In this document: positions 8,683 through 32,382 of the stretch, one piece after another
Layout: the number at the start of each line of letters is the position of its first letter
How positions within the stretch are numbered: the first letter of the stretch is position 1
Assembly (NCBI GenBank): GCA_050251945.1
Contig: JBFWLW010000004.1
Location: forward strand, 64,001 to 128,000
DNA: 64,000 bases
Direction of reading: 5' to 3'
Origin: Deferribacterales bacterium
GTDB lineage: Bacteria > Chrysiogenota > Deferribacteres > Deferribacterales > Geovibrionaceae
Program-made: the position numbers and the translations under genes
The notes under the pieces: model-generated
Databases searched by the model: none
Told to the model about the DNA's origin: nothing
Seen by the model: the letters and a program-made list of their open reading frames with translations, nothing else

Positions 8683-8685
8683 AGA

Positions 8686-10281: not shown

Positions 10282-10466
10282 TTCGCACCTCCTGAGATTA
10301 TAAAACCCATGCTTAATATGCCTCCAAGAAAAGCTATAAATCCTATAATAAAAGAAATCCTCTTATGCCTGTAGTCGAACGGAGGATTATGAGGATCGAT
10401 AAAACGCCCATTATAATATATACGGGGTGTCGGTGGTGTTGGGTGCTGTTCTGTGTTTTTGCTCAT
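10278..10466 (-). CDS. Small membrane protein
   Basis: 62 aa, C-terminal hydrophobic helix, coupled stop/start. Confidence 0.55.
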   Translation of the reverse strand: MSKNTEQHPTPPTPRIYYNGRFIDPHNPPFDYRHKRISFIIGFIAFLGGILSMGFIISGGAK

Positions 10467-10618
10467 TTCGCACCGTCCATGATTCCGAATTTTTCTTTCA
10501 GGAATTTAGTTACCGATTCAAATGTGTTAAATACTGAACCCTGAAGACCATAGCTGACGACAAAGCAATTAGACGCAGGAAAGTACCTGACTGTTATTTC
10601 AATATCCTCTCTACTCAT
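10463..10618 (-). CDS. Small hypothetical protein (51 aa, below the ORF-track cutoff)
   Basis: Manual translation MSREDIEITVRYFPASNCFVV...GAK; overlaps both neighbours. Confidence 0.5.
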   Translation of the reverse strand: MSREDIEITVRYFPASNCFVVSYGLQGSVFNTFESVTKFLKEKFGIMDGAK

Positions 10619-11144
10619 CCCCGTCCTCCGTGGTATGCGCTCTTTTCACACGTTCTATCGCCGCAATGGCGAGAGCGGCAATCTGTGTCATACGGCGGCA
10701 ATATTCGTCATGGTCCATGCTTTCTACACCGACTAAATTGTATGCTTTTTTATTGTAAAGATTTATGATTTCGCAAAAATCATCACAAGAGTGTTCATCG
10801 TCGTGGCTGTCTCCCCATTTTTCCCGCTGATGCTCACGTTCTTGTAATATTGCAGTAACGATTTCTTCATTTTCGATAAACGCTTTGATGTTTGGTTTAA
10901 ACTCAAGACATTTTTCGTTAAGGTCGAAAGCGTTTCTGAACATCGTTTCGTAGCCAAGAATGATTCCGTGAAATATCCCATCAACTATCCTGTTGTTCTT
11001 GTGCATAAAGTTTATAAAGTCATCAGCAACCAGCTTTCTATCGTCTGCTGACGCACGCTTAAACCTCATTGCGTGATTATTCAACGAGTGAATAACGTTT
11101 GATGCTTTAATCAAATCTTTTTCTTTAATTGCTACAATCTTCAT
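10611..11144 (-). CDS. Phage hypothetical protein
   Basis: C-terminal ERExQxEKWG..HDD..IAALAIAAIER motif common in phage early genes. Confidence 0.6.
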   Translation of the reverse strand: MKIVAIKEKDLIKASNVIHSLNNHAMRFKRASADDRKLVADDFINFMHKNNRIVDGIFHGIILGYETMFRNAFDLNEKCLEFKPNIKAFIENEEIVTAILQEREHQREKWGDSHDDEHSCDDFCEIINLYNKKAYNLVGVESMDHDEYCRRMTQIAALAIAAIERVKRAHTTEDGDE

Positions 11145-12018
11145 CGTCTATGCCCTCTTTTTCATTCGCCGCCTCGATGTCGTCAAGATGCAATTGGTAT
11201 GCTTCGTAAAGCGTTGCCTTCGCCTCGTCCGGTGCAATATGGGTTCCCGCTATGACTATCTCTGCCTTATGGCGCACCCTTGCGGCTATCAGGTCGATTT
11301 CTTCGGTTGCCTGCTCTTCAAAGCTCTTGCCAGATACTTTGAGTTTGCCTGCGAAGTTTTCCTCAAGCACAGCCTTTAAAAAGTCCCTCACTGCGTCTTT
11401 GTGCAGACTGCCTTTGCCGTGTCCCATAGAAACGGATATATCAATTTTCAGCCCCGAAAGAGTTTCCAGCATCTTGAAGTTTTCGCCGATCTCGCTGTTG
11501 AGAATGTTACCGACAAAATCAGCCGCCGGTGCTTCGATAGAGAGGTTGACCTTGCGGAATATCTCCCAATTCAAGACCTGCGTGTATGCGTCATAGCGAT
11601 AAAGCGGGTGTGTGCCTGCCGATGCGTCCCCGGAAAGCCAGCGCACAAAGTCCGAAAAGTTCGACGCTCTGCCGCCGAGCGTCAGGATGCACCCGTTTTC
11701 TGTGTCGATAAGCCCATAGCTGACATCACCGAGGGAATCGGGCGATTCGACAGCCTCTTGAATTTCGCCTTCTCGGTTGAAGCGGACGGGAAGAAATATC
11801 TTTTCCTTAACGATGCCTACAAGATGGAGCGTTCTGTCTGAAAGTTTGATAGGTTCGTAAACTTTAAACATGAGTTCACAGCCTTTTCCATCAAAAAAGC
11901 CATAGTCCATGCCGCCTGACGACAGCATTTCCAGTTTGAAATCCATATCCTGATAAAAGGTGTCCACTGCGGATTCCAGTTTGTAAAAGTTGATTGTTAC
12001 GTTTTTGCGTTCTGCCAT
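11125..12018 (-). CDS. Possible DUF6731/RexA-RdgC-like protein
   Basis: 297 aa; length and N-terminal VTINFY and C-terminal EIDLI pattern resemble this group. Confidence 0.4.
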   Translation of the reverse strand: MAERKNVTINFYKLESAVDTFYQDMDFKLEMLSSGGMDYGFFDGKGCELMFKVYEPIKLSDRTLHLVGIVKEKIFLPVRFNREGEIQEAVESPDSLGDVSYGLIDTENGCILTLGGRASNFSDFVRWLSGDASAGTHPLYRYDAYTQVLNWEIFRKVNLSIEAPAADFVGNILNSEIGENFKMLETLSGLKIDISVSMGHGKGSLHKDAVRDFLKAVLEENFAGKLKVSGKSFEEQATEEIDLIAARVRHKAEIVIAGTHIAPDEAKATLYEAYQLHLDDIEAANEKEGIDDEDCSN

Positions 12019-12400
12019 TTAAGCACCTTTCTTTGTTTTTTTATTTCCGAGGTCGTCCTCAACAGGCGGCGTCCATGTATTTTGAAAATACACACGAACT
12101 TGTTCTATCTTGTCGTTTGATACCCCCCCCCTGCTGGAGATGTTCAAAGTTTTTCCAGTATTTTTCAGGGAGCGGTTCACAGTAACCTGAACAGCTTCCC
12201 CATCCTCGAATAAGTCCTGCCCTTGTAAAAGAGGGCATTCTTTGAAAGATGGCAAGCCCCTCATATCCGGCTCTTTTTGTCCATGCCACATAAGCCAAAT
12301 GCCCCTGTTCAGGCTTAGGTCTGCCGAGCTTCATGTCAACGTAGCCATAGGGCTGATTCGGGATCGTTATCTGTTTAAGTTCTTCTGCTACTTCTGCCAT
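12019..12400 (-). CDS. Phage hypothetical protein, apparently frameshifted at a G9 tract
   Basis: RBS + ATG at 12400; G9 at 12123-12131; the alternative frame ends TAA directly before the next ATG. Confidence 0.5.
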
Positions 12401-12404
12401 GTCG

Positions 12405-12938
12405 TTACTCCTGTATGATGTAATATCGTGTGTTTCTTGTTTGGATGATTGAATCTTTAATGCTAATGACAATGCTTGTGCGCGCATATGCTCCATCTTC
12501 AGCTCTTCTTTTCCTGTCGGAATATATACGCCCTTCGGCTTTTTGTCCTACCGTTGGGAAGTCTGAAACAACGAGTATTGCGTCATAATGTGCGTCTTTA
12601 AGACAATCAATATTGCTCTTTTCCGAATCGTTATGGGAAGCATTAAGAGCCTTTTTAAGTTCCACTATTTCTTGCTCAAGCTCGGCATAAAGCGGTCTCC
12701 TTACTTTGCCGGAGCGGTAAAACCGCGGTGATTTCTTTTCTGGGACAGGCTTTATGTATTCAAAAAGGTTTCCATTGCGTATCATAGCCGCTATCACCGT
12801 CCCCTGCATGTTGAGAACTACGGCAGCAGGCTTGATTATCCCATTGTTAAAAACTACCGCTCTTTTCTGTTCAGCAAGTTCCGCAAGTCTCTCAAGAGAG
12901 GTTACTTTTGGTTTTTCGTGTTTCATTATGTTTGTCAT
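12405..12938 (-). CDS. Phage hypothetical protein
   Basis: ORF with RBS; C-terminal RTSIV..IQTRNTRY motif. Confidence 0.6.
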   Translation of the reverse strand: MTNIMKHEKPKVTSLERLAELAEQKRAVVFNNGIIKPAAVVLNMQGTVIAAMIRNGNLFEYIKPVPEKKSPRFYRSGKVRRPLYAELEQEIVELKKALNASHNDSEKSNIDCLKDAHYDAILVVSDFPTVGQKAEGRIYSDRKRRAEDGAYARTSIVISIKDSIIQTRNTRYYIIQE

Positions 12939-12990
12939 AGAACCCTCGTATTTTCCTGCGTCTTCCCCCGCCCCAGAACGAGGCGGGAGG

Positions 12991-13284
12991 CTATTCAAAC
13001 GAAACTAAAAGATCAGTCAGTGCGTTATTCATTGACTTGATGCGTGAAAAATATGCGTCATATTGAGCAAGTTTGCGGCGAACCTTACCTTCATTCTCTT
13101 CAGCTTCTGCTCTCATCCTGCGGGCATATGCGAGATCAGATTCAAGAGCGGAACAATAATCACACTTTTCATGCTCAGTTTTTTCACTTTTTTCCTGTAA
13201 ATACTGCAAAACGATTTCATCGATTTGTTCCTTGATGTAATTTGCAACATTTTCATCTGGGACCACTATATTAATAGTAACCAT
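12991..13284 (-). CDS. Phage hypothetical protein
   Basis: 97 aa, GGAGG RBS, CxxC plus coiled coil. Confidence 0.6.
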   Translation of the reverse strand: MVTINIVVPDENVANYIKEQIDEIVLQYLQEKSEKTEHEKCDYCSALESDLAYARRMRAEAEENEGKVRRKLAQYDAYFSRIKSMNNALTDLLVSFE

Positions 13285-13292
13285 AAATCCTC

Positions 13293-13970
13293 CTATAATA
13301 TGTAAACGGGTATTCCGGTTTCGTCCTCTACAGTCCGCTGAAACAGCGGAGCATCGGAATTGCCAGCCGAGAGATGCAGTAGATGTATTTCTTTCACTCT
13401 CGACATGTCGTTTGCCTTGAGCAATTCAAGGCATGTTTCAAGGCTCATGTGTGTTTCCATCAGCCTTTTCCTGCGTGCCGGCTCAAGCTCGGTTATAAGT
13501 TCAAGGCTGTGGTTACACTCAACAGCAACCATTGTCAGACCTTTGAATCGATATTTGATGTAGTGCGTATCTGTTGCAAACATCAGTTTATCTATTCCGT
13601 CTGTTATAAGGAATCCGAGCGGTTCTTTGCAGTCATGCTCCACCGCAAAAGGCAATACAGTGAAGCATCCGACACGAAACTGATTTCCGGCTGTGACTAT
13701 ATTAAGTCTATGTCCAGAAAGTCCGAGCGCAGCCGCCGTTCCAGCAGAAGTATAAAGCTCTACGCCAGCCTTCATGATTTCTTTACACGCTTTCGCATGG
13801 TCTTGGTGTTCGTGGGTAACGAGACAGCCCGAGATTCCCGACAAGCTGAAATCAAGATGCTTCTTGATGCTCGCTATGGATAATCCCGCTTCAATCATGA
13901 TTTTTGTTGTTTGGCTCTGTACGGTGTAAAGATTACCCGCAGAAGAGCTGGCGTATTGCTTAAATGTCAT
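13293..13970 (-). CDS. MBL-fold metallo-hydrolase (putative exonuclease partner of RecT)
   Basis: THEHQDH, HD, ATDT, ECNH and HLS motifs. Confidence 0.88.
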   Translation of the reverse strand: MTFKQYASSSAGNLYTVQSQTTKIMIEAGLSIASIKKHLDFSLSGISGCLVTHEHQDHAKACKEIMKAGVELYTSAGTAAALGLSGHRLNIVTAGNQFRVGCFTVLPFAVEHDCKEPLGFLITDGIDKLMFATDTHYIKYRFKGLTMVAVECNHSLELITELEPARRKRLMETHMSLETCLELLKANDMSRVKEIHLLHLSAGNSDAPLFQRTVEDETGIPVYIL

Positions 13971-14809
13971 CAGTAGGGGTCTTCCTCTGTGTTGTTTTCA
14001 GGAATAACTGTTCCGTCGATTACTGTTTGTACATCGTCTGAACCGTGTTTGATGGGGGAGGTTTCCTGAATATCGATAACGTCAGACTTATTGGCTTTTT
14101 GCCGAGACTCAGCGTAAGGATCATTCACATAGTCGCTGTCACCTGCGAAGGCATTAGCCATCTCAATGCTCATTGGTGCATATTTTGAGAACAAAGCCCT
14201 GATGGGCGTTTTCAGAGCCATACTGTCGAAGTCGGTTTTCCATGCCGAACTTGCAAATTTATAGCTGGGAGAGTATTTTTCTGCATGAGCAATTACGTCT
14301 TCTCTTGTCATGTAAAGGCATTTTTCAAATCCATTCAGGAGTTGAAAATATGCGAAATATCCAGCGATATTGTCACTCTTTTTCTGTCCCGAAAGGTCAA
14401 CCTCCCCCGTCAGTTTGAATGTTCTCGAAAGCTCGCCTTCGTAAACGACATCGGCATTTATAAAGCGGTAAAGACCTGTCCTTTGGGCAAGTTGAATATA
14501 TCCTCTGTAGCCCATGATAAATGTGGGAACCTTTTTATACGCAACGACATAAGCGAATCCGAGCGATTTTTCTATCGGGAGACCAAGCACCGCGGCTTTC
14601 ATACCCTCTTTGATAACATCTCCAGGCTCACACTCCTGAAGGTATTTGTCGTTAGAAAACAGATTCAGAAGAGATGTAGCGAACAGGGCGGATTTTTCGC
14701 CAAGTGCTTTTCTGAACTCGTCCTTTACAGAATCGGCATCGAGAATCATCTTGAATTTTTTGGTTATCGCGTTTGCAGTCGGTGTTTCTGCTATTACTGT
14801 TCCTGCCAT
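13970..14809 (-). CDS. recT: RecT family single-strand annealing recombinase
   Basis: LGFAYVVAY, MGYRGYIQLAQRTG and W..DFDSMALKT motifs. Confidence 0.9.
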   Translation of the reverse strand: MAGTVIAETPTANAITKKFKMILDADSVKDEFRKALGEKSALFATSLLNLFSNDKYLQECEPGDVIKEGMKAAVLGLPIEKSLGFAYVVAYKKVPTFIMGYRGYIQLAQRTGLYRFINADVVYEGELSRTFKLTGEVDLSGQKKSDNIAGYFAYFQLLNGFEKCLYMTREDVIAHAEKYSPSYKFASSAWKTDFDSMALKTPIRALFSKYAPMSIEMANAFAGDSDYVNDPYAESRQKANKSDVIDIQETSPIKHGSDDVQTVIDGTVIPENNTEEDPY

Positions 14810-16665
14810 TATGCCACCTCCAGTGTTTTTGCGTTTGCGTCAACAATCAGCTTTACGAGCTGGGTGTCTATTTCGATGAATCTTGTCACGGCTTCGGAGT
14901 TATCAATAAACACCGGAGCTTGCATTTTGTAGTGTTTTGAAAGTGTGTCTACGATATCCAGCCCGACGTTAATTTCTGCGCCACGGTTAAGCCCGTAACC
15001 GTAAGGAACGCCGTCAAACAGGGTGACGCAGACCTCATTGATACCGCCGTTGACCTGTTGCTCAAAAAGTTTGAAACGTGCGTATTTGAATTTCTCGTTG
15101 ATGCGTTTTTCCAGCATGGAGACTTTTGTTACAACGAACCTGTCTATAAGGAAGAGCGTTTTATCAGTCTTTTCGAGCATAGCCGCGAGTTCCCTTTCTC
15201 TGCTGCGGAGATCGTCAATTTGCACAAGAACCTTGTCTCTGTGCTTTGCGTTCGCGATTTTCTCGTTGACTGCTTTAATCTCTCTTTCCATTTCGGAGGT
15301 ATCAGCGGGTTTGTTTGCCGCAATTTCTGCGTCAAGTTCGGCAAGTCCCGCTTTGATGGCTTCAAGACGTGCGGGCTTGGCAGGAAGCGTAACATTCTCC
15401 AGCGCCGCCTTGGCTTCGTCGGCACTCTTAGTCAGTCTTTCGATTTCTGCGTCAAGTTCGGCAAGTTCCGCTTTGATGGCTTCGCTCTCAGTGATTAATA
15501 GGTCTAGCTCCGCTTTAACAGCTTTCCCGTTTTCAGCATTTGCCTCAAGACCTGCGTTCATTTTGCGCAGGACTTCGGCTTTTGTGGCATTGATTTTATC
15601 TTCTGGTAGAACCTGCCCGCAAGTCGGGCAATCCGTGTCAACAGTGACAGGCTCTTTCAGTTTTTGACGCTCCGCGCGGAGATTTTCGAGTTTTGCCTGT
15701 TTTTCAGAAACCCTTTGCTCGGCAGTCGCAAGTTTTCTTGAAATATCGCTTCTTTTTGATGTGGCGGCATTAACGAGGTTGCGGGCGTTGCCGACAGCCG
15801 TCTGCGCGGCATCTTTTGTCTTTGTGCAGTTGCGTTCATGCTCATACATGAGTTTATCGATTTCGTGCGAAAGTTCTGTTTTTTGGGCGACAAGCTCCGA
15901 AATTCCGCCTGTTGCTTTTGCTGCCTCGATGCGGTTTTCAAGGTTTTCTGCCTCTTTTTTCAGATTAGGAATAGAGTAGTCGCGGTATTCAACAATAGAC
16001 GCTGAAAGTGAATCTATGCGCGCTGGTATTTGCTCTATTTCGTCGTTTGCTTTTTTTCTGTCTGCAAGAAGGACTTTCTTTTCATCATCAAGTTTGCGCT
16101 CAACCCCAGCAAGAGTTGCAAGTTCGGGATTAGAAGCTATTACCTCCGCGTCCGAAAGGTCGCCGACAACTTCCATAAGAATGTCGCGACGCGCGGTCCA
16201 GTGCAGAGCATTGAACGCGGTAACGGATGTGATAAGCCCAAATTTCTTCGTGTCTATGCGCTCGTCCAGCCATTTCTGAAACTCAGTCTGGTTGTGCGGT
16301 ACGCCGTCGATAGTATAGTTAGTTTCATGTCCTTTCATCTCTGACACGCTTGAACCGCGTTGCTTGACCCATTTCTCGATCATGGTGCGGGTAAGCGTGA
16401 CGGGTGAACCGTCAATGTCCAGAACAGCTTCAATAGAGTGTTCGAGACCGTGGACTATTTTTCCGTCTTCCAGCCTTTTTATCTGGAAATCAGCTTTGCC
16501 GTTACTATCCTTCCCAAACAGGAGCCATGAAAAAGCATCCACTATGGTTGTTTTTCCAGTTGCGTTGTCTCCGTGTATCTCGGTGACATTGTCATTGAAC
16601 GTCAGTGAAAGACTGCGGATGCCTTTAAAGTTCCGCATTGAAAGAGACTTGAGAATTATTCTCAT
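14809..16665 (-). CDS. Rad50/SbcC-like AAA ATPase
   Basis: Walker A GDNATGKT, coiled coil with CPTCG hook, Walker B VFIDNSE. Confidence 0.88.
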   Translation of the reverse strand: MRIILKSLSMRNFKGIRSLSLTFNDNVTEIHGDNATGKTTIVDAFSWLLFGKDSNGKADFQIKRLEDGKIVHGLEHSIEAVLDIDGSPVTLTRTMIEKWVKQRGSSVSEMKGHETNYTIDGVPHNQTEFQKWLDERIDTKKFGLITSVTAFNALHWTARRDILMEVVGDLSDAEVIASNPELATLAGVERKLDDEKKVLLADRKKANDEIEQIPARIDSLSASIVEYRDYSIPNLKKEAENLENRIEAAKATGGISELVAQKTELSHEIDKLMYEHERNCTKTKDAAQTAVGNARNLVNAATSKRSDISRKLATAEQRVSEKQAKLENLRAERQKLKEPVTVDTDCPTCGQVLPEDKINATKAEVLRKMNAGLEANAENGKAVKAELDLLITESEAIKAELAELDAEIERLTKSADEAKAALENVTLPAKPARLEAIKAGLAELDAEIAANKPADTSEMEREIKAVNEKIANAKHRDKVLVQIDDLRSRERELAAMLEKTDKTLFLIDRFVVTKVSMLEKRINEKFKYARFKLFEQQVNGGINEVCVTLFDGVPYGYGLNRGAEINVGLDIVDTLSKHYKMQAPVFIDNSEAVTRFIEIDTQLVKLIVDANAKTLEVA

Positions 16666-16694
16666 ATATAATTTACCTCCTTAATATAAACATA

Positions 16695-16767
16695 TGCGGG
16701 TAGGGGGATTTGAACCCGCGACCTCCTGTTCCCAAAACAGGCGCGCTACCAACTGCGCTATACCCAC
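16695..16767 (-). tRNA. Phage-encoded tRNA-Pro(TGG), atypical G1:C72
   Basis: RC: GTGGGTA-TA-GCGC...CCTGT-TTTGGGA-ACAGG...GCGGG-TTCAAAT-CCCCC-TACCCGC-A; one T-stem mismatch. Confidence 0.82.
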
Positions 16768-16770
16768 TTT

Positions 16771-16897
16771 CTACAGAGAGCCGACCAAAGGAATCGAACC
16801 TTGAAAGAACCTAGTAGCTGGCTCGCATGCGGTTATTCCGTACCAGCGTGTTCTTTTTCCACTCGCCATTACGTTGATGGCTTTCGGCTCTCTATAG
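16771..16897 (-). ncRNA. Candidate tRNA-like structured RNA
   Basis: 14-bp closing stem, internal hairpins, AAGG-TTCGATT-CCTT T-arm; abuts the phage tRNA. Confidence 0.55.
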
Positions 16898-17058
16898 AGG
16901 GGCGGTTCAGGTTTCCGCCCCAAAACTTCTTAAAAACAAGTGGCTTTATCTTACTTTTCTGATTAATTTTATTACTACCCGTCGCCGGGGCATGGTCGGG
17001 TGATGAAGCCGCCATAGTTGCCGTGGTCTGCTAAACCGTTAAGCCGTCACCTCCTGCT

Positions 17059-17244
17059 TTATATGAACTCTACGTCGCCGTATGTTTTCTTTGCCCATGT
17101 CTGAAAGTCTTCCGTAACTTCACCCTTCGCCTTCAGCGTCGCATGATGGAGTAGGTTCGGCAGAAGCATCACGCAACGACCGTCAGCCGTGTTTGTCAAC
17201 GGTTTCTGCTTTTTTCGGAGAAACCGTATTATCTGTTTCAGCAT
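17059..17244 (-). CDS. Small phage hypothetical protein
   Basis: GGAGG RBS before ATG at 17244. Confidence 0.5.
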   Translation of the reverse strand: MLKQIIRFLRKKQKPLTNTADGRCVMLLPNLLHHATLKAKGEVTEDFQTWAKKTYGDVEFI

Positions 17245-17531
17245 TTTTAGCCTCCAACTTTGAAAGTCCTCTATCGGATACGAGATGTGATTCGTTCGCA
17301 AAATCAATCAGTTCCGCGTATCGCACCTTGTCTGTAGCTATCGAAATTAAGTGGTAAAGCACCTGCTTTTCGATTCTTTCATCTATACGCATCTTGAGGC
17401 TGCCGCACCAAAGAGGTATTGAAGCGAAATCAAGGTCTGCGCCGCTCAGGTCTGCGCCGCTCGCCGTCATCTTCATCTTCAAGCCACTTTTCGTGGTCGT
17501 CCAAAATCTTTCTTATTTCTTCAGGTGTCAT
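17183..17531 (-). pseudogene. Pentapeptide-repeat protein, frameshifted by repeat collapse
   Basis: MTPEEIRKILDDHEKWLEDEDDGER, then a frame change into ADLSGADLDFASIPLWCGS. Confidence 0.7.
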
Positions 17532-17640
17532 ACCGCCTCCTCATATTCTCTGAACTGGCTTCCGTGCGTACATCGTCCGCAAGCGCCGTTGTTGCACTGT
17601 TCGCAGTGCTGACACTGCTGTTTGATTGGTGTGTGGAGTT

Positions 17641-17838
17641 TCATGCGCCTACCTCCTCTTTCGGCTGAATCTTGTGTCCTATGGAAACGCAAACCCAACA
17701 CCTTGAGGTATGTGGGAGGCTTTTCTGAAACTCAGCAGACTCGACAGCTTTTGCCTGAGTGAACATTTTTTCTTGTTTCAAATGCTCTACTTCTTTCTTA
17801 GTCAGGTCTTTTGCCCATGTCGGGAGTTTTGCTCTCAT
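17641..17838 (-). CDS. First gene of the PL operon, hypothetical
   Basis: GGAGG RBS, CxxC, directly downstream of PL. Confidence 0.6.
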   Translation of the reverse strand: MRAKLPTWAKDLTKKEVEHLKQEKMFTQAKAVESAEFQKSLPHTSRCWVCVSIGHKIQPKEEVGA

Positions 17839-17856
17839 ATCGTCCTCCATGATGGG

Positions 17857-17908
17857 ATGATATAACATTACTGTTAGTCTGTCAACAGTAAATCTAACAG
17901 AAATGTTA
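17857..17908 (-). promoter_or_regulatory. PL promoter with two operators
   Basis: TTGACA-17-TATCAT on the minus strand; TAACA-N4-TGTTA at 17863-17876 and 17895-17908. Confidence 0.8.
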
Positions 17909-17975
17909 TTTATTTTTGCATTATTGTGGTTTGATTGTTTTAGTTATTGATATAGAAAGGAATTAAGATTGAAAA

Positions 17976-18413
17976 TTATTGAGATAAAAAGCGTAAAAGT
18001 TTGTTGATCTCTTTTTCTTTCATGTTTTCATAATTTACGGTGCCGTTGAACCCTTGTGATATGAGAATCTTTTTGCATATTTCTATTTTCTGATTTCTTG
18101 TGGGAATAATAATACTGAGAACAAAAACACTAAGATCATACAACTCGAGTGTTTTCTCGGGCTGCATAAAATCATTAAGTTCATTAAAAGAGATATTTAA
18201 ATGTGTCCGAGTAAATCTTTTAAGCCAGTTTTCAGATTTTCCAATACTTTTAAGTTGATTACGGATGCTTTGAATAGTGTCTTCTCTCCATAATCGTTCC
18301 AAAACAGATTGTGGAAGAAATTTACAGGTTTTACATTGAAATATATTTAGATTACCGCTATTTATACCAATCTGAATAGATTCGTTTCCTGAATTATCCT
18401 GATTTATAATCAT
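17976..18413 (-). CDS. Immunity-region accessory protein with N-terminal N-rich RHIM-like motif
   Basis: AT-rich ORF just downstream of the repressor; starts MIINQDNSGNESIQIGINSGNLN. Confidence 0.7.
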   Translation of the reverse strand: MIINQDNSGNESIQIGINSGNLNIFQCKTCKFLPQSVLERLWREDTIQSIRNQLKSIGKSENWLKRFTRTHLNISFNELNDFMQPEKTLELYDLSVFVLSIIIPTRNQKIEICKKILISQGFNGTVNYENMKEKEINKLLRFLSQ

Positions 18414-18425
18414 CAACACCAGTCA

Positions 18426-18860
18426 TTAAAAAGTTGATAATCTTTTGAACTCATTAAGCCTTTCAAGCAATTTTTCTTTAAATTCATTCGGGGCGTACAC
18501 CAGCATTTCTATAATTTGTGATTCAATATTATCTTTATTAAATGCTTGGCTGTTGTTAAACGTTCCGGAATTTGTTCCAAACTGAATATTGTTATTACCA
18601 GAATTGTTTTGGTTTACCGAGTAGTCCTCAATTTGGATATCTCCAAAAAAATATGATATTGGCAATTCAAGTATGTTTGCTATTTCTACAAGCCTTGGCG
18701 TTGCAATTCCATTCCCTTGCTTAAGACTTCTGTAAAGAGATGCTGGATCAATATTTAATTGATCAGCAAGTTCAGCAATATTCATATCTCTAAGCTTTGC
18801 GCCAGCCCTTATTCTATCACTAATAACATCAAAAATTTCATGCGGTGCATATTTTTTCAT
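18426..18860 (-). CDS. CI-like XRE HTH repressor lacking an S24 peptidase domain
   Basis: HTH_3 pattern (NIAELADQLNIDPASLYR..RLVEIANILELPISYFF), divergent from a cro-like gene. Confidence 0.85.
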   Translation of the reverse strand: MKKYAPHEIFDVISDRIRAGAKLRDMNIAELADQLNIDPASLYRSLKQGNGIATPRLVEIANILELPISYFFGDIQIEDYSVNQNNSGNNNIQFGTNSGTFNNSQAFNKDNIESQIIEMLVYAPNEFKEKLLERLNEFKRLSTF

Positions 18861-18878
18861 AATCAATAATACTCCATA

Positions 18879-18947
18879 TAACATAACTGTTAAATAGCAA
18901 GGATGTTATATTTATATCTTGACAAACTAACACATATGTTATATCTC
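18879..18947. promoter_or_regulatory. OR region: three operators and PR
   Basis: TAACA-N4-TGTTA at 18879-18892, 18895-18908 (1 mismatch) and 18928-18941; TTGACA at 18919. Confidence 0.8.
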
Positions 18948-18963
18948 TAATACAGGAGGACAC

Positions 18964-19164
18964 ATGCAGTTAAAAGAATACATCAAGCAATTTCACGACG
19001 GCAATCTGACAGATTTTAGCAGAGCATCCGGAGTACCACTGATGAATCTATCAAGGTATACAAGGGGCGGAACACCTAGCCCTGAATATATCAAAAAAAT
19101 AGAATCAGTTACGAATGGCAAGGTTTCTCTTGATGATTTCGTCAATAAAAATAAATCCGCTTAG
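18964..19164 (+). CDS. Cro-like regulator
   Basis: 66 aa HTH ending IESVTNGKVSLDDF. Confidence 0.85.
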   Translation: MQLKEYIKQFHDGNLTDFSRASGVPLMNLSRYTRGGTPSPEYIKKIESVTNGKVSLDDFVNKNKSA

Positions 19165-19214
19165 TTAATCGGCAATGTTTACGGATAGTTTAGCGTGAAA
19201 TTGAGAGGACAGTT

Positions 19215-19991
19215 ATGAGCAATATCAAACTCTTTGAACATGAGAGGTTCGGGCAGGTGCGGACACTGACCGATGCAAACGGCGAGCCGTGGTTTCTTGC
19301 ACAGGAAATCACAAGAGTTCTTGGATATCTGAATAATGCAGAGGCAATAAGAACAAACGTTGACGAGGATTGTTTCAGGCAAATCTATATCCCAGAATTA
19401 TCAAACAATTACACTCTTATTAATGAAAGCGGACTTTATTCTTTAATAATGAGGTCTCAAAAAGAAGAGGCAAAAGTCTTCCGCAAATGGGTGACATCCG
19501 AAGTCCTTCCCAGCATCCGCAAGCACGGCGCGTACATGACACCGGATGTTATCGAAAAAACGCTTCTTAATCCAGACTACCTCATTCAGCTTGCAACAAC
19601 ATTGAAAGAATCGCAGGAACAGAACCGGAAACTGAACGAGAAGATTGCCGCCGATGCCGACAAAGTGGCTTTTGCTGAATCGGTGAATAAGACGGTGGAC
19701 AATTTAACCGTCAGAGACTACGCAAAAGTTCTTTATAACGAAAACATCAAGCTCGGTCAGAACAGACTTTTCCACCTGCTCCGCATGAAAGGAATTTTGG
19801 ACAGAGACAATAAGCCATATCAAAAATACATAGATAATGGCTGGTTCGTTCTGAAGCTCTCGACATATCGCAATTCATCCACAGACAACATCATCGAATA
19901 CACTCAACCACGTATCACAGGCAAAGGGCAAATTGCGCTCAGAACCCGCATACTCGCGTGGATATCAGGCGACGAGGCGGTGGGAGAATGA
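19215..19991 (+). CDS. Antirepressor, Bro-N + KilA-C (ANT)
   Basis: INESGLYSLI..FRKWVTSEVLPSIRKHGAY; ITGKGQ. Confidence 0.9.
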   Translation: MSNIKLFEHERFGQVRTLTDANGEPWFLAQEITRVLGYLNNAEAIRTNVDEDCFRQIYIPELSNNYTLINESGLYSLIMRSQKEEAKVFRKWVTSEVLPSIRKHGAYMTPDVIEKTLLNPDYLIQLATTLKESQEQNRKLNEKIAADADKVAFAESVNKTVDNLTVRDYAKVLYNENIKLGQNRLFHLLRMKGILDRDNKPYQKYIDNGWFVLKLSTYRNSSTDNIIEYTQPRITGKGQIALRTRILAWISGDEAVGE

Positions 19992-20088
19992 AAAAGATAG
20001 TTTATCAGTGCCAGAAATGCCATTCGACATTGACCGTTTTGAAGACAGTAAAAATCTGGCTATGCGCAATACGTAAGGAGGATGTGGC

Positions 20089-20382
20089 GTGAAGAAAAAA
20101 GAACTGCTTGCAACAGCAATCATAACAAACGGACAGAAACAAGACGAAATCTGCATTGAAGAGTGTGCAGAGCTTATTCAGGCATTTCAGAAAATTAAGC
20201 GTGTTGATGAATATTCAGCTATGGCTTGCGTTGAACATCTTATTGAAGAGCTTGTGGACGTTGAGATCATGATTGAGCAAATGAAATTGAGGTATCCGTT
20301 TCAGGGTCTCAGGGAGCGGATTGAAACGATGAAATTGAATAGGTTGGCAAGTTCTTTGGGGGTTACTTATGATAATGCATAA
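20089..20382 (+). CDS. MazG-like nucleotide pyrophosphohydrolase
   Basis: EECAELIQ...EELVDVEIMIEQ. Confidence 0.7.
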   Translation: MKKKELLATAIITNGQKQDEICIEECAELIQAFQKIKRVDEYSAMACVEHLIEELVDVEIMIEQMKLRYPFQGLRERIETMKLNRLASSLGVTYDNA

Positions 20383-20677
20383 CCCACTCAGACGCAAACA
20401 GAAGCCCACAGAACAGCAAGAAGAGACAACCGCCGAGCTTTCCTCGACAGTTGACAACACCGTGCGCTACGCCCGTTTATTCTGGTCTGCGATGCTGTTT
20501 TTCGCCGTGGTATTTGGGATTATCTACGCCGACAGATATGTCAGCGCATATGAGACCGACCTTGTTAAGCGCAGGGATATCAGCATTCAGATGATTGAGG
20601 CTATTGAGAGCAAGAACATCGTTTATGTGCCGGTGCCGGAAAGCGTGTACCTAAAGATTACCGAGGCGGGCAAATGA
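20375..20677 (+). CDS. Membrane-anchored hypothetical protein
   Basis: One TM segment. Confidence 0.55.
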   Translation: MHNPLRRKQKPTEQQEETTAELSSTVDNTVRYARLFWSAMLFFAVVFGIIYADRYVSAYETDLVKRRDISIQMIEAIESKNIVYVPVPESVYLKITEAGK

Positions 20678-20777
20678 AAAAATGGTGGCGCGACATTAAT
20701 TACGGTCTCATCGGTGCGTTGGCTTTTGTTGCATATTTCTGGGCGGCAGTAGCAATTCTGATAGTGAGGTGGTCCTG

Positions 20778-21203
20778 ATGGCATTACTTGAAATCAACGG
20801 CGTTTGCCGACTGGCACGCAATCCTGAAATACGCTTTCTCCCAGGTTCTGAAATAGCTATCGCTCAATTTGCAGTAGCATGTTCCGAGAAGTACAAAGAT
20901 AAGGAAAAGACGGCTTACTATGACTGTAAAGCGTGGGGAAAGCTGGCTGAAATCTGCGGTGAATATCTGACAAAAGGGTCAAAAGTGTTTATCCGTGGGA
21001 AACTGGAACAGGAGACATGGGAAGACAAAGACAGCGGCAAGATGCGTTCTAAACACGTTATCCGCATAGACAAACTTGAGTTTTGCGAGAGTAAGAAGGA
21101 CGGCGGAAACCAGAACGCTTTTGACGAACCCGTCAGCGGCGGCGGAATGTCTGAAGACGATATTCCATTCGAATCATATATGAATGGGTTGGTCGCCCCT
21201 TAA
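20778..21203 (+). CDS. ssb: Single-stranded DNA-binding protein
   Basis: OB-fold motifs (AWGKLAEICGEYLTKGSKV), DDIPF near the C-terminus. Confidence 0.92.
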   Translation: MALLEINGVCRLARNPEIRFLPGSEIAIAQFAVACSEKYKDKEKTAYYDCKAWGKLAEICGEYLTKGSKVFIRGKLEQETWEDKDSGKMRSKHVIRIDKLEFCESKKDGGNQNAFDEPVSGGGMSEDDIPFESYMNGLVAP

Positions 21204-21403
21204 ATACAAAACAGTAGAGGCATAGCCCTTTCTGTCCCGCTCGAAATACCACGGAGCATCGGCAAAGCGGGGGCTTGCGGATGTTTCCGTCGGGGCGGCA
21301 TAGATGGGGTTACATAGCGGTTACATGAAAAAATTAATAAATATAAACATTTTGCGTCGCTTATTAAAAATTGAATACAAATGCAGTTACATGAGGTAAG
21401 GCG

Positions 21404-22006
21404 ATGAGAATTTTAAATCTTTTTTCTGGGATAGGCGGCAATAGGGAATTATGGACTAGCAATATAACTGCTGTTGAGGTTGATCCACTAATTGCGGCAG
21501 TATATAGCAATCGCTTTAGTTCTGATACTGTCGTCATTGGAGATGCCTTATCGTTTGTTGAGTTTAACTATAATGATTTTGATTTCATATGGGCAAGCCC
21601 ACCATGCCCATCACACGGACAATATAGGCACAATGTAGGAGTGCTTGGAAAGGGATTCTCTCCAATAATACCCGACATGACATCACTGTATGGATTGATT
21701 ACGTTTTTAAAAACTTACTATAAAGGTTTATGGGCAGTTGAAAATACTATGCCTTATTATGATTTCCTCATAAAACCCACTGTTTTTTTACAGAGACACC
21801 CGATTTGGAGTAATTTTCCTATTCCCCCAAAAAACTTCATGGCTGAAGGAATCAGAGATAAAAATAAAATATCTGATTTCGATGGTTTTGAAATAATTTC
21901 AAAAAGCAAGATTAAGAATAAAAGGCAGGTTATGCGCAATTGTGTAAATCCAGAAATCGGGAAATATGTCTTGGATTGTGCAGTTAGTTATAGAGTTGCG
22001 ATATGA
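21404..22006 (+). CDS. Short C5-cytosine DNA methyltransferase-like protein
   Basis: LFSGIGG (motif I), ASPPC (motif IV), VEN (motif VI). Confidence 0.8.
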   Translation: MRILNLFSGIGGNRELWTSNITAVEVDPLIAAVYSNRFSSDTVVIGDALSFVEFNYNDFDFIWASPPCPSHGQYRHNVGVLGKGFSPIIPDMTSLYGLITFLKTYYKGLWAVENTMPYYDFLIKPTVFLQRHPIWSNFPIPPKNFMAEGIRDKNKISDFDGFEIISKSKIKNKRQVMRNCVNPEIGKYVLDCAVSYRVAI

Positions 22007-22803
22007 TCCCATATTTCAGCAATGACCACGGACAGCTTTTTTGCGGCGACTGCTTAGATATCATGTCAAAAATAGATATTTCTTTTGATGCAGTAATCGC
22101 CGATCAGCCGTATGGAGCGACCGCTTGTAAGTGGGATTCTATTATTCCATTTGTGCCGATGTGGGAAAATATAAATCGTTGCGCTAAAGTTAACGCTGCG
22201 ATAGTTCTTTTTGGTGCAGAACCGTTCAGTTCTGCCTTACGATTGAGTAATTTACGGAATTATAAGTATGATATAATCTGGGACAAAATAAAAGGTACTG
22301 GCTTTTTAAATGCCCGCAGACAGCCGATGCGTAATCATGAATTAATTTCGATATTTTATCGAAAGCAATGTGTTTATAATCCGCAAAAGACAACAGGGCA
22401 TCAGCTTAAAACCTCAAGAAAGAAAGCTTTTTCACAGACCGATGTTTATGGTTTTATGAAAAATGATTGTGAATACAAAAGTGCGGAAAGATATCCCCGC
22501 AGTATCGTTGAGTTTTCGACAGACACTCAGAAAAGTTCGTTACATCCCACGCAAAAACCAATAGCCCTTTATGAGTATTTAATTAAAACGTACACAAATA
22601 AGGGGGATATTGTTCTGGATTTTTGCGCAGGTAGCGGGACTTTGGCTGTGGCGGCTGAAAAATGTGGACGGAAATGGGTCTGTATAGAAAAAGAAGAAAA
22701 ATACTGCGATATCGCTATAAAACGGATTCAGGGAGTGGCTATTGAAGAACCTGCGGATAAACCAGAACTTACAATCGAGGATTTTATCGAGGTGCAGGGA
22801 TGA
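22003..22803 (+). CDS. N4/N6 DNA methyltransferase (beta class)
   Basis: DQPY catalytic variant, HPTQKP, DFCAGSGT. Confidence 0.88.
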   Translation: MIPYFSNDHGQLFCGDCLDIMSKIDISFDAVIADQPYGATACKWDSIIPFVPMWENINRCAKVNAAIVLFGAEPFSSALRLSNLRNYKYDIIWDKIKGTGFLNARRQPMRNHELISIFYRKQCVYNPQKTTGHQLKTSRKKAFSQTDVYGFMKNDCEYKSAERYPRSIVEFSTDTQKSSLHPTQKPIALYEYLIKTYTNKGDIVLDFCAGSGTLAVAAEKCGRKWVCIEKEEKYCDIAIKRIQGVAIEEPADKPELTIEDFIEVQG

Positions 22804-23003
22804 GGCTTGACCAATTAACCCCCTGTGACCGCTTTATTTTGCGCCTGTACAACGGATATGAGGACGAACCTGTGGAAACACGCACGGGCGTATTTAAATG
22901 CGTCTACAGCAGCAATCCTGACTTCTGTGTCGTTGTTTTTGATGGCATTGAGGGCGAACAGTACGAACACTCTCATTATGATGTCGAGAAGATAGAGGGG
23001 TAA
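22800..23003 (+). CDS. Small phage hypothetical protein
   Basis: Coupled ATGA start. Confidence 0.5.
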   Translation: MRLDQLTPCDRFILRLYNGYEDEPVETRTGVFKCVYSSNPDFCVVVFDGIEGEQYEHSHYDVEKIEG

Positions 23004-23008
23004 AGAAG

Positions 23009-23740
23009 ATGCGATGGTTAAAGCATATGACCTGTGCGAACAGGGATGAAAAAATGATGCGCATTATGGACGAATTCGGCGTCGCCGGATACGGGATGTA
23101 TTGGCTTATACTTGAAACTATCGCTGAAAAACTTGATGAAAGTAACGACACTTTTATAGAAATGTCGGTACAAAGCTGGAGAAAACTTACAGGAATTCCA
23201 CCAAAAACTTTGGAAAAATTTCTAAGTTTTTGTCAAGTTTTAGGGTTGTTTGTGGTGAAAAATTCTGAGAATTTAATCAGTGTGGATTGCCCTAACTTAT
23301 TGAAGTATAGGGATGAATACCAAAGGAAACAATCTAAAAAGTCCGGACAAGCACCCGACAAACTCCAACCCAAGAATACAGATACAGATACAGATACAGA
23401 TACAGAAGAAAAAAAGAAACCCCCTATATCCCCCTTTGATGTTTCCTCAATGCCGCTGCCGGAAAAAATTGATCGCGGTGACTGGACAAAGTGGCTTTCA
23501 CACTTCCGAGAATCAACTGGTCGGTATCCATCCGAAGAACAGGCTAATCAGCAAATACGTGATATTTTATATTTTGCCCGCGATGGAACGACCACGGCAG
23601 ATGTGATCTGTTACAACATAGGCGGAGGCTACAAGCGGATTTATAACCCTGCAAAACAGGAATCAGGACAAAAGAGCGCATCAAAAAAAGGCGATATCTC
23701 AGAAGGTGCAAGGAGCTTTTTAAATGCAAAAACAGCTTGA
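23009..23740 (+). CDS. Phage replication initiator
   Basis: MRWLKHM..GYGMYWLILE N-terminus; DTDTDTDTE linker. Confidence 0.78.
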   Translation: MRWLKHMTCANRDEKMMRIMDEFGVAGYGMYWLILETIAEKLDESNDTFIEMSVQSWRKLTGIPPKTLEKFLSFCQVLGLFVVKNSENLISVDCPNLLKYRDEYQRKQSKKSGQAPDKLQPKNTDTDTDTDTEEKKKPPISPFDVSSMPLPEKIDRGDWTKWLSHFRESTGRYPSEEQANQQIRDILYFARDGTTTADVICYNIGGGYKRIYNPAKQESGQKSASKKGDISEGARSFLNAKTA

Positions 23741-24296
23741 TAGGCAAATATTCTTTAAAGGTTTACAGGTTTTATCAGTGCTTCCACAAGGAAAAAATCC
23801 TGTTGATCTCACGGATGAATTCACACTTACAGTTTGGTACGAAGCTCTAGGCGATATTGATAACGATAGCTTCCAGAAAGCGGTGATACTACTGCTCCGC
23901 TCCTCAAAATGGCACCCGGCACCTGTTGATATTCGCAGAGCTGCTGGCTTTATCGAAACCACGGAAAGCGGAAAATCGGATGAAACGGCTATTACTCAGT
24001 GGGAGGAGTTCAGTCGTAAAATCCAGAGTGTTGGGCATCAACGGATGGAACGAATCTGGTACGAAGATAAAAAAGCAGTTTTTGACGATCCAGTAACTGA
24101 TGCTATTGCAAGAACTTTTGCAAAAGAATACGCAATGTCGAACGTCACAGAAGCCGGGAATTGGAGAGCGCGCTTTATCGCAGCATATAACAATTCAAAA
24201 GAACACGGTATTAAAACCGCCGAGGTTCAGAAGATTGGAAATATACTAAGTGGCATGATAGGTCAAAGTGGCAATCTAAAGCTGGTGAAGCCGTGA
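23724..24296 (+). CDS. Helicase loader/inhibitor-like protein
   Basis: WYEALGDI..KWHPAPVDIR; follows the initiator. Confidence 0.6.
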   Translation: MQKQLDRQIFFKGLQVLSVLPQGKNPVDLTDEFTLTVWYEALGDIDNDSFQKAVILLLRSSKWHPAPVDIRRAAGFIETTESGKSDETAITQWEEFSRKIQSVGHQRMERIWYEDKKAVFDDPVTDAIARTFAKEYAMSNVTEAGNWRARFIAAYNNSKEHGIKTAEVQKIGNILSGMIGQSGNLKLVKP

Positions 24297-24691
24297 AAAT
24301 TATAGCATCAGAGCATAATGAACAAGTGTCGCTTTTTCAATGGGCGGCTATGCAGACGGCGAGATACCCGGAACTAGCGCTGATGTTTGCAGTTCCTAAC
24401 GGCGGACTGAGAAACGCCACGGTAGCGGCGAAACTGAAAGCGGAGGGGGTTAAGCCCGGTGTACCTGATATTTTCCTTCCTGTGGTTCGTGGCGGCTATC
24501 ATGGATTGTTCATTGAGATGAAGCGCACCAAAGGCGGCAAGCTGAGTGCGGAACAGGCAAACTGGATAGCCAAGCTTTTAGAGCAGAGATACGCGGTTTA
24601 CAAATGCGAAGGATGGGCAAAAGCGAAAGAGTGTATCGAACAGTACTTAAAACTTGCCCCTGAAAGTGGCAGAAAGGCGGTTTTCCCGTGA
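24293..24691 (+). CDS. VRR-NUC nuclease
   Basis: FAVPNGG, GVPDIFL, FIEMK. Confidence 0.9.
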   Translation: MKIIASEHNEQVSLFQWAAMQTARYPELALMFAVPNGGLRNATVAAKLKAEGVKPGVPDIFLPVVRGGYHGLFIEMKRTKGGKLSAEQANWIAKLLEQRYAVYKCEGWAKAKECIEQYLKLAPESGRKAVFP

Positions 24692-24796
24692 GATATATGC
24701 AAAACAATACCAACGTAGCCCAAGGGGTGCAAAATGCGGCAAAAGGGAAATAAGGGCGAAAGTTTGAAGGGCATGAAAACAAGGGAGGTGTTTTAG

Positions 24797-25039
24797 ATGG
24801 AAACTTCTGAAATTCAATCATTGAAAAACAACGATTTAGCACATTTTATGCCATTAAAGAAAAACTTTACCGTAGAAGAGGTTTCAGTTTATTTTTCATG
24901 TTCCGCTGCAACTATAAAACGAAGGTGCCGTAACGGACAGATTGAAGCTATTAAAATTGGGAAGATATGGAGAATTTCCAGAACAGCTTTATCCGAGTTT
25001 ATCAGATTAAACACGGATAGGGGTCAGCTATCAGATTAA
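24797..25039 (+). CDS. HTH_17/excisionase-like regulator (candidate late regulator)
   Basis: FTVEEVS..TIKRRCRNGQIEAIKIGKIWRI. Confidence 0.75.
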   Translation: METSEIQSLKNNDLAHFMPLKKNFTVEEVSVYFSCSAATIKRRCRNGQIEAIKIGKIWRISRTALSEFIRLNTDRGQLSD

Positions 25040-25056
25040 ACACGGATAGGGGTCAG
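25000..25056. repeat. 28-bp tandem duplication
   Basis: TATCAGATTAAACACGGATAGGGGTCAG at 25000-25027 and 25029-25056. Confidence 0.9.
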
Positions 25057-25354
25057 AGCAATTGGAAAGAGACATGGATTTACTGGAAGAAATCAGACAA
25101 CTGTCCGATGCAATTGATTTTATGCTCAAACATATTGAGTATCAAACAAAAAAGTTTATCAGTAACATACATCATTCCTAACAGATTACACATAAAAAGC
25201 TCGTAACATGCTAATATATAAAACTATTTAGTATTATGTGTAGCTAATACATAGCCTAAAATATGAGAATGCAGACCATAGTAACATATCCGGCACTCAA
25301 ATCAATGTATTTTTAGCCCCAAAATATTTTCTGCAACTTTTTTAATTTTCCCCC

Positions 25355-25383
25355 TTGACAACCCGTGCATTGTACGGTATATT
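25355..25383 (+). promoter_or_regulatory. Strong sigma70 promoter with palindromic operator in the spacer
   Basis: TTGACA-17-TATATT; CCGTGCA-T-TGTACGG at 25363-25377. Confidence 0.8.
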
Positions 25384-25426
25384 TACTTTATCAAGAGCGG
25401 AACAGACCGCAAAAAGGAGCAAGAAA

Positions 25427-25690
25427 ATGAGAAAATTTGAAATAATAAAGACAGAAACAGTAGCCGAAGAAAAAACAACATGGGCACTCGATTGTTTCAA
25501 TGAAGCTCAACCTAGCAAAGATTATGATGCAAGGATTACAAAAAGTTACGTGAGAGCAGAAAGCTTAACAGCTCTTATGGCTGAACTTGAAAAAAACATT
25601 TCTCCTATAGAGAAAGCATTTTCTAAAGTAAAAAGAACCGAAAATACTATTTTTGCAATGTTCACACAAATAACAGCAACTGAAATATAA
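25427..25690 (+). CDS. Small orphan protein, candidate anti-CRISPR/anti-defence
   Basis: AAAAAGGAG RBS, 87 aa, first gene after the promoter. Confidence 0.7.
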   Translation: MRKFEIIKTETVAEEKTTWALDCFNEAQPSKDYDARITKSYVRAESLTALMAELEKNISPIEKAFSKVKRTENTIFAMFTQITATEI

Positions 25691-25777
25691 TCGGAAAAAG
25701 GGCAAATCAACGAAATTGATGATGATGAATTTGAAGATTGAATCACAACGGGATGAACCTCAAAAAAGGAGATAACA

Positions 25778-26050
25778 ATGGCAACTTACAGAGAATACGC
25801 AAAAGAAAACGGACACACAGATGCAGAGATTGAAGAAATGGTAGAAGGTCTTTTCGGCGCAGATGCAGAAATGGTTCTCGCAAGAACCGAAGACGGGAAG
25901 GGTGTTTACAGCGAAGATGAAGGATATCAGAGAACCGAAGATGGAGCGCAAGTTTACAATATGGGCAACGGCTATACTCTATATGTATCAGGAAGCTCTT
26001 ATGACATCGTGGGGCATGATAACGGTGAAACATGGGAACTTGAATACTAA
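25778..26050 (+). CDS. Small highly acidic protein, candidate anti-CRISPR/DNA mimic
   Basis: AAAAAGGAG RBS; about 21 D/E vs 5 K/R in 90 aa. Confidence 0.7.
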   Translation: MATYREYAKENGHTDAEIEEMVEGLFGADAEMVLARTEDGKGVYSEDEGYQRTEDGAQVYNMGNGYTLYVSGSSYDIVGHDNGETWELEY

Positions 26051-26080
26051 AAAAGGCGGCTGTTTAAGCCACCTTTTTTT
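26049..26080. terminator. Bidirectional terminator
   Basis: A6-GGCGGCTG-TTT-AAGCCACC-T7. Confidence 0.7.
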
Positions 26081-26096
26081 GAACTAAGTTCATTTC

Positions 26097-26133
26097 GTTT
26101 CAACTCACAGGGGCGACCGCAATCGCCCCTGAC
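26097..26133 (-). ncRNA. Solitary type I-C-like CRISPR repeat unit (candidate Racr/crRNA-like RNA)
   Basis: RC GTCAGGGGCGATTGCGGTCGCCCCTGTGAGTTGAAAC: GT + 9-bp stem + 11-nt TGAGTTGAAAC tail. Confidence 0.6.
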
Positions 26134-26163
26134 TTTCACAAAGGATAGCACACGGAAAATAAA

Positions 26164-26421
26164 ATGCAAATAAAACTATCAGCGCCAGAACTCAGAAAAA
26201 TTTTTGGACTTACTAACAGGGAGATTTCCGCGGCACTTGGCAAGCCTTTGAGTACCATTGAGCAGCACATGGCGGCGCGGGAATCAGCACGCCACCGGAA
26301 TATGCCTGATTCAGATAAGATGCTGCTCATTTTACGCTACAAAATTATAGAGATGGGATATAATCCCGATAAACTGATAGATGATTTTTTAAGTGAACAC
26401 AATAAAAGCGACGGGGCATAA
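26164..26421 (+). CDS. HTH regulator, Aca-like
   Basis: LRKIFGLTNREISAALGKPLSTIEQHMAA..HRNMP; last gene of the cassette. Confidence 0.65.
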   Translation: MQIKLSAPELRKIFGLTNREISAALGKPLSTIEQHMAARESARHRNMPDSDKMLLILRYKIIEMGYNPDKLIDDFLSEHNKSDGA

Positions 26422-26530
26422 CCCCGCTTTTTTTGTGCCAGAATCTCTATTATTTTAATAAACTCTCGTTTTATCGCTCACATCGTTCTCACCGTCCACA
26501 GAAATTTTTAAGATATGCAATATTAAGGGC

Positions 26531-32336: not shown

Positions 32337-32382
32337 ACAATACGGCGGGGTTTATAGCCCCGCCATAATTTAAGGTGACAAT

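Follow-up and report, generated by a model that had tools for sequence, protein, structure and literature searches.

In phage lambda, cI lies together with rexA and rexB between the operators OL and OR, and the C-terminal S24 domain of the CI repressor confers cooperativity, loops the operators and mediates RecA-dependent cleavage. Known bacterial amyloid signalling ends, to our knowledge, in cell death, and we know of no accepted explanation for the ORF6C domain, whose role has long been obscure. ORF6C (PF10552) is found in antirepressors of the Bro-N/Rha-ORF6C type, as set out in PMC4257102. Bacterial amyloid signalling motifs of the classes BASS1-10 occur in Bell/NLR gene pairs and come in two layouts, all-in-one proteins and adjacent gene pairs, and the RHIM/BASS3/PP group has the signature G-phi-Q-phi-G (10.1101/2020.01.06.895854). 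BASS11, the Bab/Agp system, is an adjacent-gene motif pair that lies in a prophage and acts in abortive infection (10.1101/2024.11.07.622273). The terms 'HTH' and 'repressor' are absent from the main text of the two latter sources, and, among literature titles and abstract openings that include few subscription papers, neither a repressor sharing such a motif nor ORF6C effector fusions are described.

The window analysed here, by which we mean the whole stretch of 64,000 nucleotides, encloses a prophage of lambdoid gene order (7498..50040, ends unmapped) with integrase (7498-8682), RecT, replication, terminase, portal, capsid, tail and endolysin genes. Its CI position is held by P0001 (18426..18860, minus strand, 144 aa), which consists of an HTH (residues 18-71; PF01381/PF13443 and PHROG repressor families), an Asn/Gly-rich motif and a C-terminal helix. 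Twelve nucleotides downstream lies P0002 (17976..18413, minus strand, 145 aa, with an alternative GTG start at 18419), which consists of an N-terminal motif, a helical domain at residues 35-104 and a second small helical part at residues 105-145; the two genes are presumably co-transcribed. The pair is placed between two clusters of putative operators. Specifically, the left cluster (17863..17908) has two perfect TAACA-N4-TGTTA palindromes, at 17863-17876 and 17895-17908, that flank a leftward sigma70-like promoter (17885 to 17857), while the right cluster (18879..18941) has sites at 18879, 18895 (one mismatch) and 18928, between the repressor and the cro-like HTH gene (18964..19164, plus strand; domain and PHROG profile matches). 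The 3.07-Mb genome contains six perfect sites of this pattern, four of them at this locus; as the pattern was derived from the locus itself, any estimate of its chance occurrence is post hoc. The promoter scan taken alone yields no more sites than chance would give (5 found, 7.1 expected). Over 27 nt, the two early promoter regions, leftward (17859-17885) and rightward (18919-18945), are inverted copies of each other at 85%.

As in lambda, the repressor has an N-terminal HTH, is transcribed divergently from cro and is flanked by predicted operators, in clusters about 1 kb apart, with an extra downstream gene in the interval, in the position of rexAB. Unlike lambda CI, P0001 has no S24 domain, carrying instead the motif and the helix, and its downstream gene shares the repressor's motif. 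The profile search gave no Peptidase_S24 match in P0001 even at E<=10, and the stretch after the motif has only about 40 residues, which confirms the sequence-only reading, where a CI-like repressor lacking the S24 autoprotease had been proposed. The cassette is AT-rich (GC 0.30-0.33 against 0.43-0.48 in the flanks). Contigs of related phages from four public runs match from 17700 to about 17850-17862, beyond which at least one contig in each of the four runs diverges, so that, starting at the left operator, the relatives differ in their immunity cassette; these contigs leave the two genes of the pair uncovered. The prophage also holds two conventional antirepressor genes, one of the Bro-N/KilAC type (19215..19991, plus strand; profile match), a possible alternative induction route, and one of the Ant family among the tail genes (36809-37609). 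Elsewhere in the element, a C5-cytosine and an N4/N6 DNA methyltransferase gene lie side by side in the early region (21404-22803), a tRNA-like sequence was recognised by eye on the minus strand of the same region (16696-16770), and a DUF6731 gene with its neighbour at the integrase end (10611-12018) is possibly an accessory or defence pair.

The motif spans residues 82-102 of P0001 (18555..18617, minus strand) and residues 3-23 of P0002 (18345..18407, minus strand). On the repressor side, it consists of three units of about seven residues, the first two ending in Gly, and is free of Pro and of charged residues; of the motif residues, 67-71% are Asn, Gln, Gly or Ser, and Gly recurs with a seven-residue rhythm. 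The proposal that the repressor and the adjacent co-oriented gene share an Asn-rich motif is confirmed, as 13 of 21 residues are identical and none of the shuffles reaches the observed score (0/5,000 over the whole neighbour; 0/20,000 over the motif residues only, with composition kept). The same reading had named a decaying DNA duplication and the absence of the motif from homologous neighbours as findings that would overturn it, and neither was found. Specifically, 9 of the 13 identical residues use different codons and nucleotide identity over the 25-codon motif region is 41/75, which places the likeness at the protein level and argues against a fresh DNA duplication, and QIG with a following G is invariant in all five rows of an alignment of P0002 and its homologues (A1; 28-87% identity to P0002). 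The monomer models of P0002 and of the wider family described below leave the motif at pLDDT <50, with domains at 80-95, which suggests that in these predictions the motif does not pack into the monomer fold.

The motif resembles those of RHIM (PF12721), BASS3 and fungal PP in its phi-Q-phi-G core. The RHIM-like label given to it at first holds for this core (IQFG in the repressor, IQIG in the partner) and fails both for the stricter (I/V)Q(I/V/L)G pattern in the repressor (IQFG) and for the Pfam profile: PF12721, with a cut-off of 20 bits, has no match at the locus at E<=10, and its best matches in the own genome (11.7 bits) lie elsewhere, so the RHIM part of the profile scoring that had been suggested as a check came out negative. 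Compared with the RHIM/BASS3/PP signature, N-I-Q-F-G and S-I-Q-I-G fit four of the five positions, the leading Gly being replaced by N or S; moreover, the wider motif family often has QAG, QTG or VAG, so that its core is not fixed, unlike in RHIM, BASS3 and PP.

P0002 has few relatives: two homologues in a set of 5.8 billion proteins, in which P0001 has one, two in a representative library and no usable match in the ESM Atlas, while in GenBank phages the homologue search gave nothing past HTH matches. The known homologues are P0003 (87% identity), P0004 and P0006 (33%) and the partner at L004 (28%); L001 and L002 were rejected as chance matches. Between P0002 and P0003, one of 19 changes falls inside residues 1-25, numbers too small for a test. 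The AlphaFold model of P0002 is helical from 35 to 145, with pLDDT <50 for residues 1-31 and about 87 for 41-90, and a fold search of the PDB with it returned only helical bundles at Z<=7.9 (POU domains and the Red-beta C-terminal domain). Profile searches detected no enzyme or membrane domain in P0002, and PADLOC gave no match. GemA/gp16, considered as a candidate identity for the helical domain, had no support from Pfam.

The helical domain (18102..18311, minus strand) is a probable homologue of the C-terminal domain found in a family of proteins in which a similar motif precedes ORF6C, a link of moderate strength that rests on profile comparison. With the motif excluded, residues 35-104 align with that domain at an hhalign E of 9e-5 (probability 59%), falling to a probability of 36% against the larger alignment A7, and a motif-free family profile ranks P0002 top among 18,607 ORFs of the genome, at E 0.09 only. 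The best viral (BFVD) structural match of the P0002 model is the ORF6C-domain protein A0A8S5M776 (E 0.014), which is also the top match of the motif-ORF6C-C family model (E 8e-14); searching PDB sequences with the family profile yielded no match below E 0.6. P0002 itself has no ORF6C domain, and neither PF10552 nor the ORF6C-family alignment A2 has a match anywhere in its genome. The partner family thus resembles the Bro-N/Rha-ORF6C antirepressors in having ORF6C and differs from them in the motif before it, the unnamed helical domain after it and the lack of Bro-N or Rha, P0002 being reduced to motif and helical domain only.

The wider family was reached through a motif-only DNA scan of viral contigs, with proteins viewed to 260 residues each, in which only L026 of 25 loci was relevant: a gene for an HTH protein that has a coiled coil and a related motif is followed by one whose product has an N-terminal motif and ORF6C. 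From L026, the search arrived at 28 distinct loci after removal of duplicates (L039, L045, L046, L049, L055-L059, L061 and L073). Two of them encode Bro/Ant-type ORF6C proteins with no motif; in each of the remaining 26, as judged by eye, ORF6C is immediately preceded by a Gly/Asn-rich segment, and the complete ones end in a C-terminal helical domain. In the family AlphaFold model, ORF6C and the C-terminal domain reach pLDDT 80-95, with the motif under 50. The motif-ORF6C-helical module is real and recurring, and what is new is the prophage repressor as one of two motif-paired partners; the functions discussed below are putative.

Fourteen of the 26 loci are one-protein fusions, with an HTH (2), HNH (4), TIR (3), Schlafen (2) or unassigned (3) N-terminal domain; of these, one HNH, two TIR and one Schlafen row have Pfam confirmation, and the others were assigned by likeness. 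Apart from the HTH fusions, these are single genes (L051, L054, L065-L071, L052, L053, L064) and candidate undescribed defence proteins, some of the TIR, HNH and Schlafen fusions matching PADLOC candidate models via the enzyme part. Several of the twelve adjoin restriction-modification-like or mobile genes. These nine TIR, HNH and Schlafen loci, together with the activity of the Bab/Agp adjacent-gene motif pair in abortive infection (10.1101/2024.11.07.622273), would suit a toxin-antitoxin or abortive-infection arrangement, in which a toxic partner is held by the repressor via the motif and loss of the repressor harms the cell; we regard this as very unlikely, given that P0002 has neither an enzyme or membrane domain nor a PADLOC match and that, in the fusions, the module is constant and the enzyme variable, which points to a sensor role for the module.

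The other 12 loci have a separate partner gene by a repressor, and in nine of them the repressor carries the motif; hence, the pairing noticed in the window recurs at nine other repressor/partner loci and, within one protein, in the fusions. On the motif HMM, seven of the nine repressors score E<0.01, with L040 at 0.15 and L036 at 1.9. L050 and P0007 belong to Bacteroidota, and the others of the nine resemble them. Six split loci (L047, L048, L050, L060, L062 and L063) were found by motif-free, folded-domain patterns, and a motif HMM built without repressors recognises every one of their six upstream repressors at E<=0.0021, the HTH parts of these being just 21-40% alike. The remaining three stand-alone partners (L041, L074 and L042) lie beside a motif-less repressor, including those of phage RS138 and a Citrobacter Mu-like prophage, which indicates that the partner can exist without the repressor tag. 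At L042 (G012:C1, reverse 873-2034), a motif-less Mu-like repressor is followed by a membrane protein that has motif copies at its N-terminus and by a motif-ORF6C-C protein with two motif copies, in an effector/receptor-like gene order. Split pairs are rare: sampling 400 genomes from the order to which G068 belongs added no new locus, and two phylum samples added 4 (400 genomes) and 3 (250 genomes).

The two HTH fusions, the annotated CI of the cultured Pseudomonas phage Gregale (OR683403.1; L037:2171-2974) and a protein from a same-genus genome (L043), suggest a finite beta-strand complementation, in which the pair is a split Gregale-type repressor that forms a closed dimer or tetramer, with the partner as a constitutive co-repressor and with no polymer or amyloid. 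The short gaps between the genes of split loci (-4 to 23 nt) fit such a split, as does the AlphaFold drawing of the motif as a hairpin of two to three strands, albeit at low confidence. In the family tree, however, the fused-HTH rows are not grouped with the split rows and 12 of 25 inner branches are open, so that the tree neither demonstrates a simple recent fission nor orders fusion and fission; moreover, the same motif stands behind TIR, HNH and Schlafen enzymes, and its composition and Gly rhythm would be more in keeping with ladder stacking than with a globular interface. We hold this explanation to be somewhat doubtful, with real weight nonetheless.

Within the genome that carries the window, the motif was searched among 18,607 stop-to-stop ORFs. 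When the HMM was built from the 26 partner-side segments, leaving out all repressors and window proteins, P0001 came first (E 0.0017), a repressor on contig C12 next (E 0.031) and P0002 fourth. A foreign HMM from 16 proteins, namely the 14 fusions and 2 partners of motif-less repressors, picks exactly the window pair, P0001 and P0002 ranking first and second at 15.4 and 15.2 bits and the next ORF of the genome reaching 7.3; several of its training proteins come from GC-rich-looking loci. These results bear on the view that the motifs are neutral low-complexity linkers, that is, Asn-rich spacers encoded by AT-rich codons, whose likeness stems from composition or old gene conversion. The AT-rich cassette and the disorder of the motif in the models would agree with it, as would the codons in ten other pairs, where 31 of 64 identical motif residues share the codon and 33 use different ones. 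Yet the composition-keeping shuffles never match the observed score, the foreign profile selects this very pair, and the sole invariant columns of a 10-repressor alignment are two motif residues, G88 and N91, so that this view is largely refuted and hardly credible.

Only two of 25 XRE-like ORFs of the genome have the motif, P0001 and the C12 repressor, and both lie in elements with a P0002-like gene. The latter belongs to a satellite-like element (L079, G000:C12:3079-12000) with integrase, antirepressor and excisionase-like genes; its repressor (L079 6841-7275, minus strand) shares both the motif and the C-terminal helix of P0001, and the P0002-like gene, whose product (L078) has a degenerate motif, lies 1 kb away on the opposite strand. 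A same-genus genome (L080, G005:C3) has a C12-like arrangement in which the distance is 1.6 kb and a primase-family gene is present; the L004 partner lies 1.6 kb from a repressor on the opposite strand. In L079 and L080, P0002-like and lipoprotein-like genes adjoin the integrase, on the strand opposite to the repressor. Cross-talk between satellite and prophage in one cell is possible.

Such arrangements would fit separate homo-oligomerisation, in which the repressor loops its operators and the partner acts alone, for instance in rexAB-like superinfection exclusion, the two motifs deriving from an old duplication under the same constraint with no cross-binding. Satellite repressors keep the motif with the partner 1-1.6 kb off on the opposite strand and, in L078, degenerate; partners keep it beside motif-less repressors (L041 and L074); and the position between operators and the low GC of the cassette fit the cargo of an immunity region. 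Weak cognate specificity among related pairs points the same way: the cognate score of nine related pairs is 380 against 360+-11 (p=0.044; pairs not independent, anchors set by hand), and the cognate partner ranks first in only 2 of these 9 rows and 3 of 13 overall, the C12 satellite pair (L078) scoring last of 13. Over all pairs, the cognate excess by permutation reaches p=0.0002 (13 pairs) and p=0.0025 (12, without the window), with hand-set anchors and relatedness uncorrected, so partner-specific matching outside the window locus appears modest on these alignments. Against this explanation stand the motif score of the window pair, 74 with its cognate and at most 52 with any other partner, together with its private extension GxNSG, and the restriction of the motif in the own genome to repressors of partner-bearing elements. 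On balance, we consider it unlikely.

The pair has the layout of the BASS pairs, with a short motif common to the products of collinear, closely spaced genes, located near the C-terminal part of one protein and at the N-terminus of the other, and with one-protein fusions besides. The motif has 21 residues, where BASS membership asks for a shared motif of at least 15 in close collinear genes, the gap is 12 nt, and nine further split loci exist; the module is also tied to TIR and other immunity domains, as in BASS, and lies in a prophage, as does Bab/Agp. Unlike in BASS, the upstream gene encodes a DNA-binding repressor whose motif is internal and followed by a helix, and the downstream module is ORF6C-related; no domain match to a Bell/HeLo-like effector or to an NLR or TPR-GreA/B-C-PIN receptor was found in the pair, which consists of an HTH repressor and a small helical protein. 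In layout, the pair resembles the BASS systems, and by domain content it stands outside BASS1-10 and Bab/Agp. The coexistence of one-protein and two-gene forms parallels the layouts of amyloid signalling motifs (10.1101/2020.01.06.895854).

We prefer a signal-gated, amyloid-type co-assembly, in which a beta-stacking tag couples a sensor-like partner to the repressor, and we give it a little less than an even chance; binding, the amyloid state, the trigger and the direction are all inferred. The suggestion made from the sequence alone, that the neighbour may template or sequester the repressor through the motif, is partly supported. In favour of co-assembly are the codon divergence behind the shared residues, the Gly/Asn-rich segment of all 26 loci that is lacking in the two Bro/Ant-type proteins, the six motif-bearing repressors reached by motif-free patterns, the restriction of the motif to 2 of 25 XRE-like ORFs, the coexistence of the two layouts, the cognate score of the window pair and the disorder of the motif in the models. 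The motif would act as a beta-arch tag, short and self-templating, that supplies one rung of an Asn/Gln/Gly-rich cross-beta stack, the ORF6C/C module a constant sensor and the N-terminal domain a variable output, which in the split form would be the repressor. In the lysogen, both proteins would be made from one transcript, and the repressor would bind the TAACA-N4-TGTTA operators through its HTH, the motif replacing the C-terminal domain of lambda CI for oligomerisation. When the helical domain of the partner encounters its trigger, which is probably a signal of infection or damage in the form of a nucleic acid or a replication protein, the partner would cluster, nucleate the motif and pull the repressor into the stack. 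The repressor would then leave its operators, giving cleavage-independent induction, which we rate slightly ahead of tighter repression because the module would be an alarm in the enzyme fusions. Enzymes of the TIR type are activated by clustering. Speaking against co-assembly are the missing RHIM profile match, the three partners beside motif-less repressors, the small cognate advantage among related pairs, the lack of ORF6C in P0002 with its moderate link to the family, the rarity of split pairs and the two conventional antirepressor genes of the prophage, which could supply induction. A complex prediction with 3+3 motif peptides, scoring 0.02, points neither way.

At its fullest, the proposal is that of a prion-like lysis-lysogeny switch, in which the repressor is captured once an ORF6C-related sensor has nucleated an amyloid rung, the same module drives undescribed single-gene TIR, HNH and Schlafen defence proteins, and the partner could cross-seed and wake the satellite, since the resident satellite repressor has the same kind of motif; taken as a whole, this is a speculative and doubtful picture. 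If true, a matched motif in a transcriptional master switch would extend amyloid signalling to lysogeny control and would provide an induction route for prophages whose repressors cannot self-cleave. Moreover, the ORF6C domain would gain a testable role, and the TIR-, HNH- and Schlafen-motif-ORF6C genes would be candidate one-gene defence proteins.
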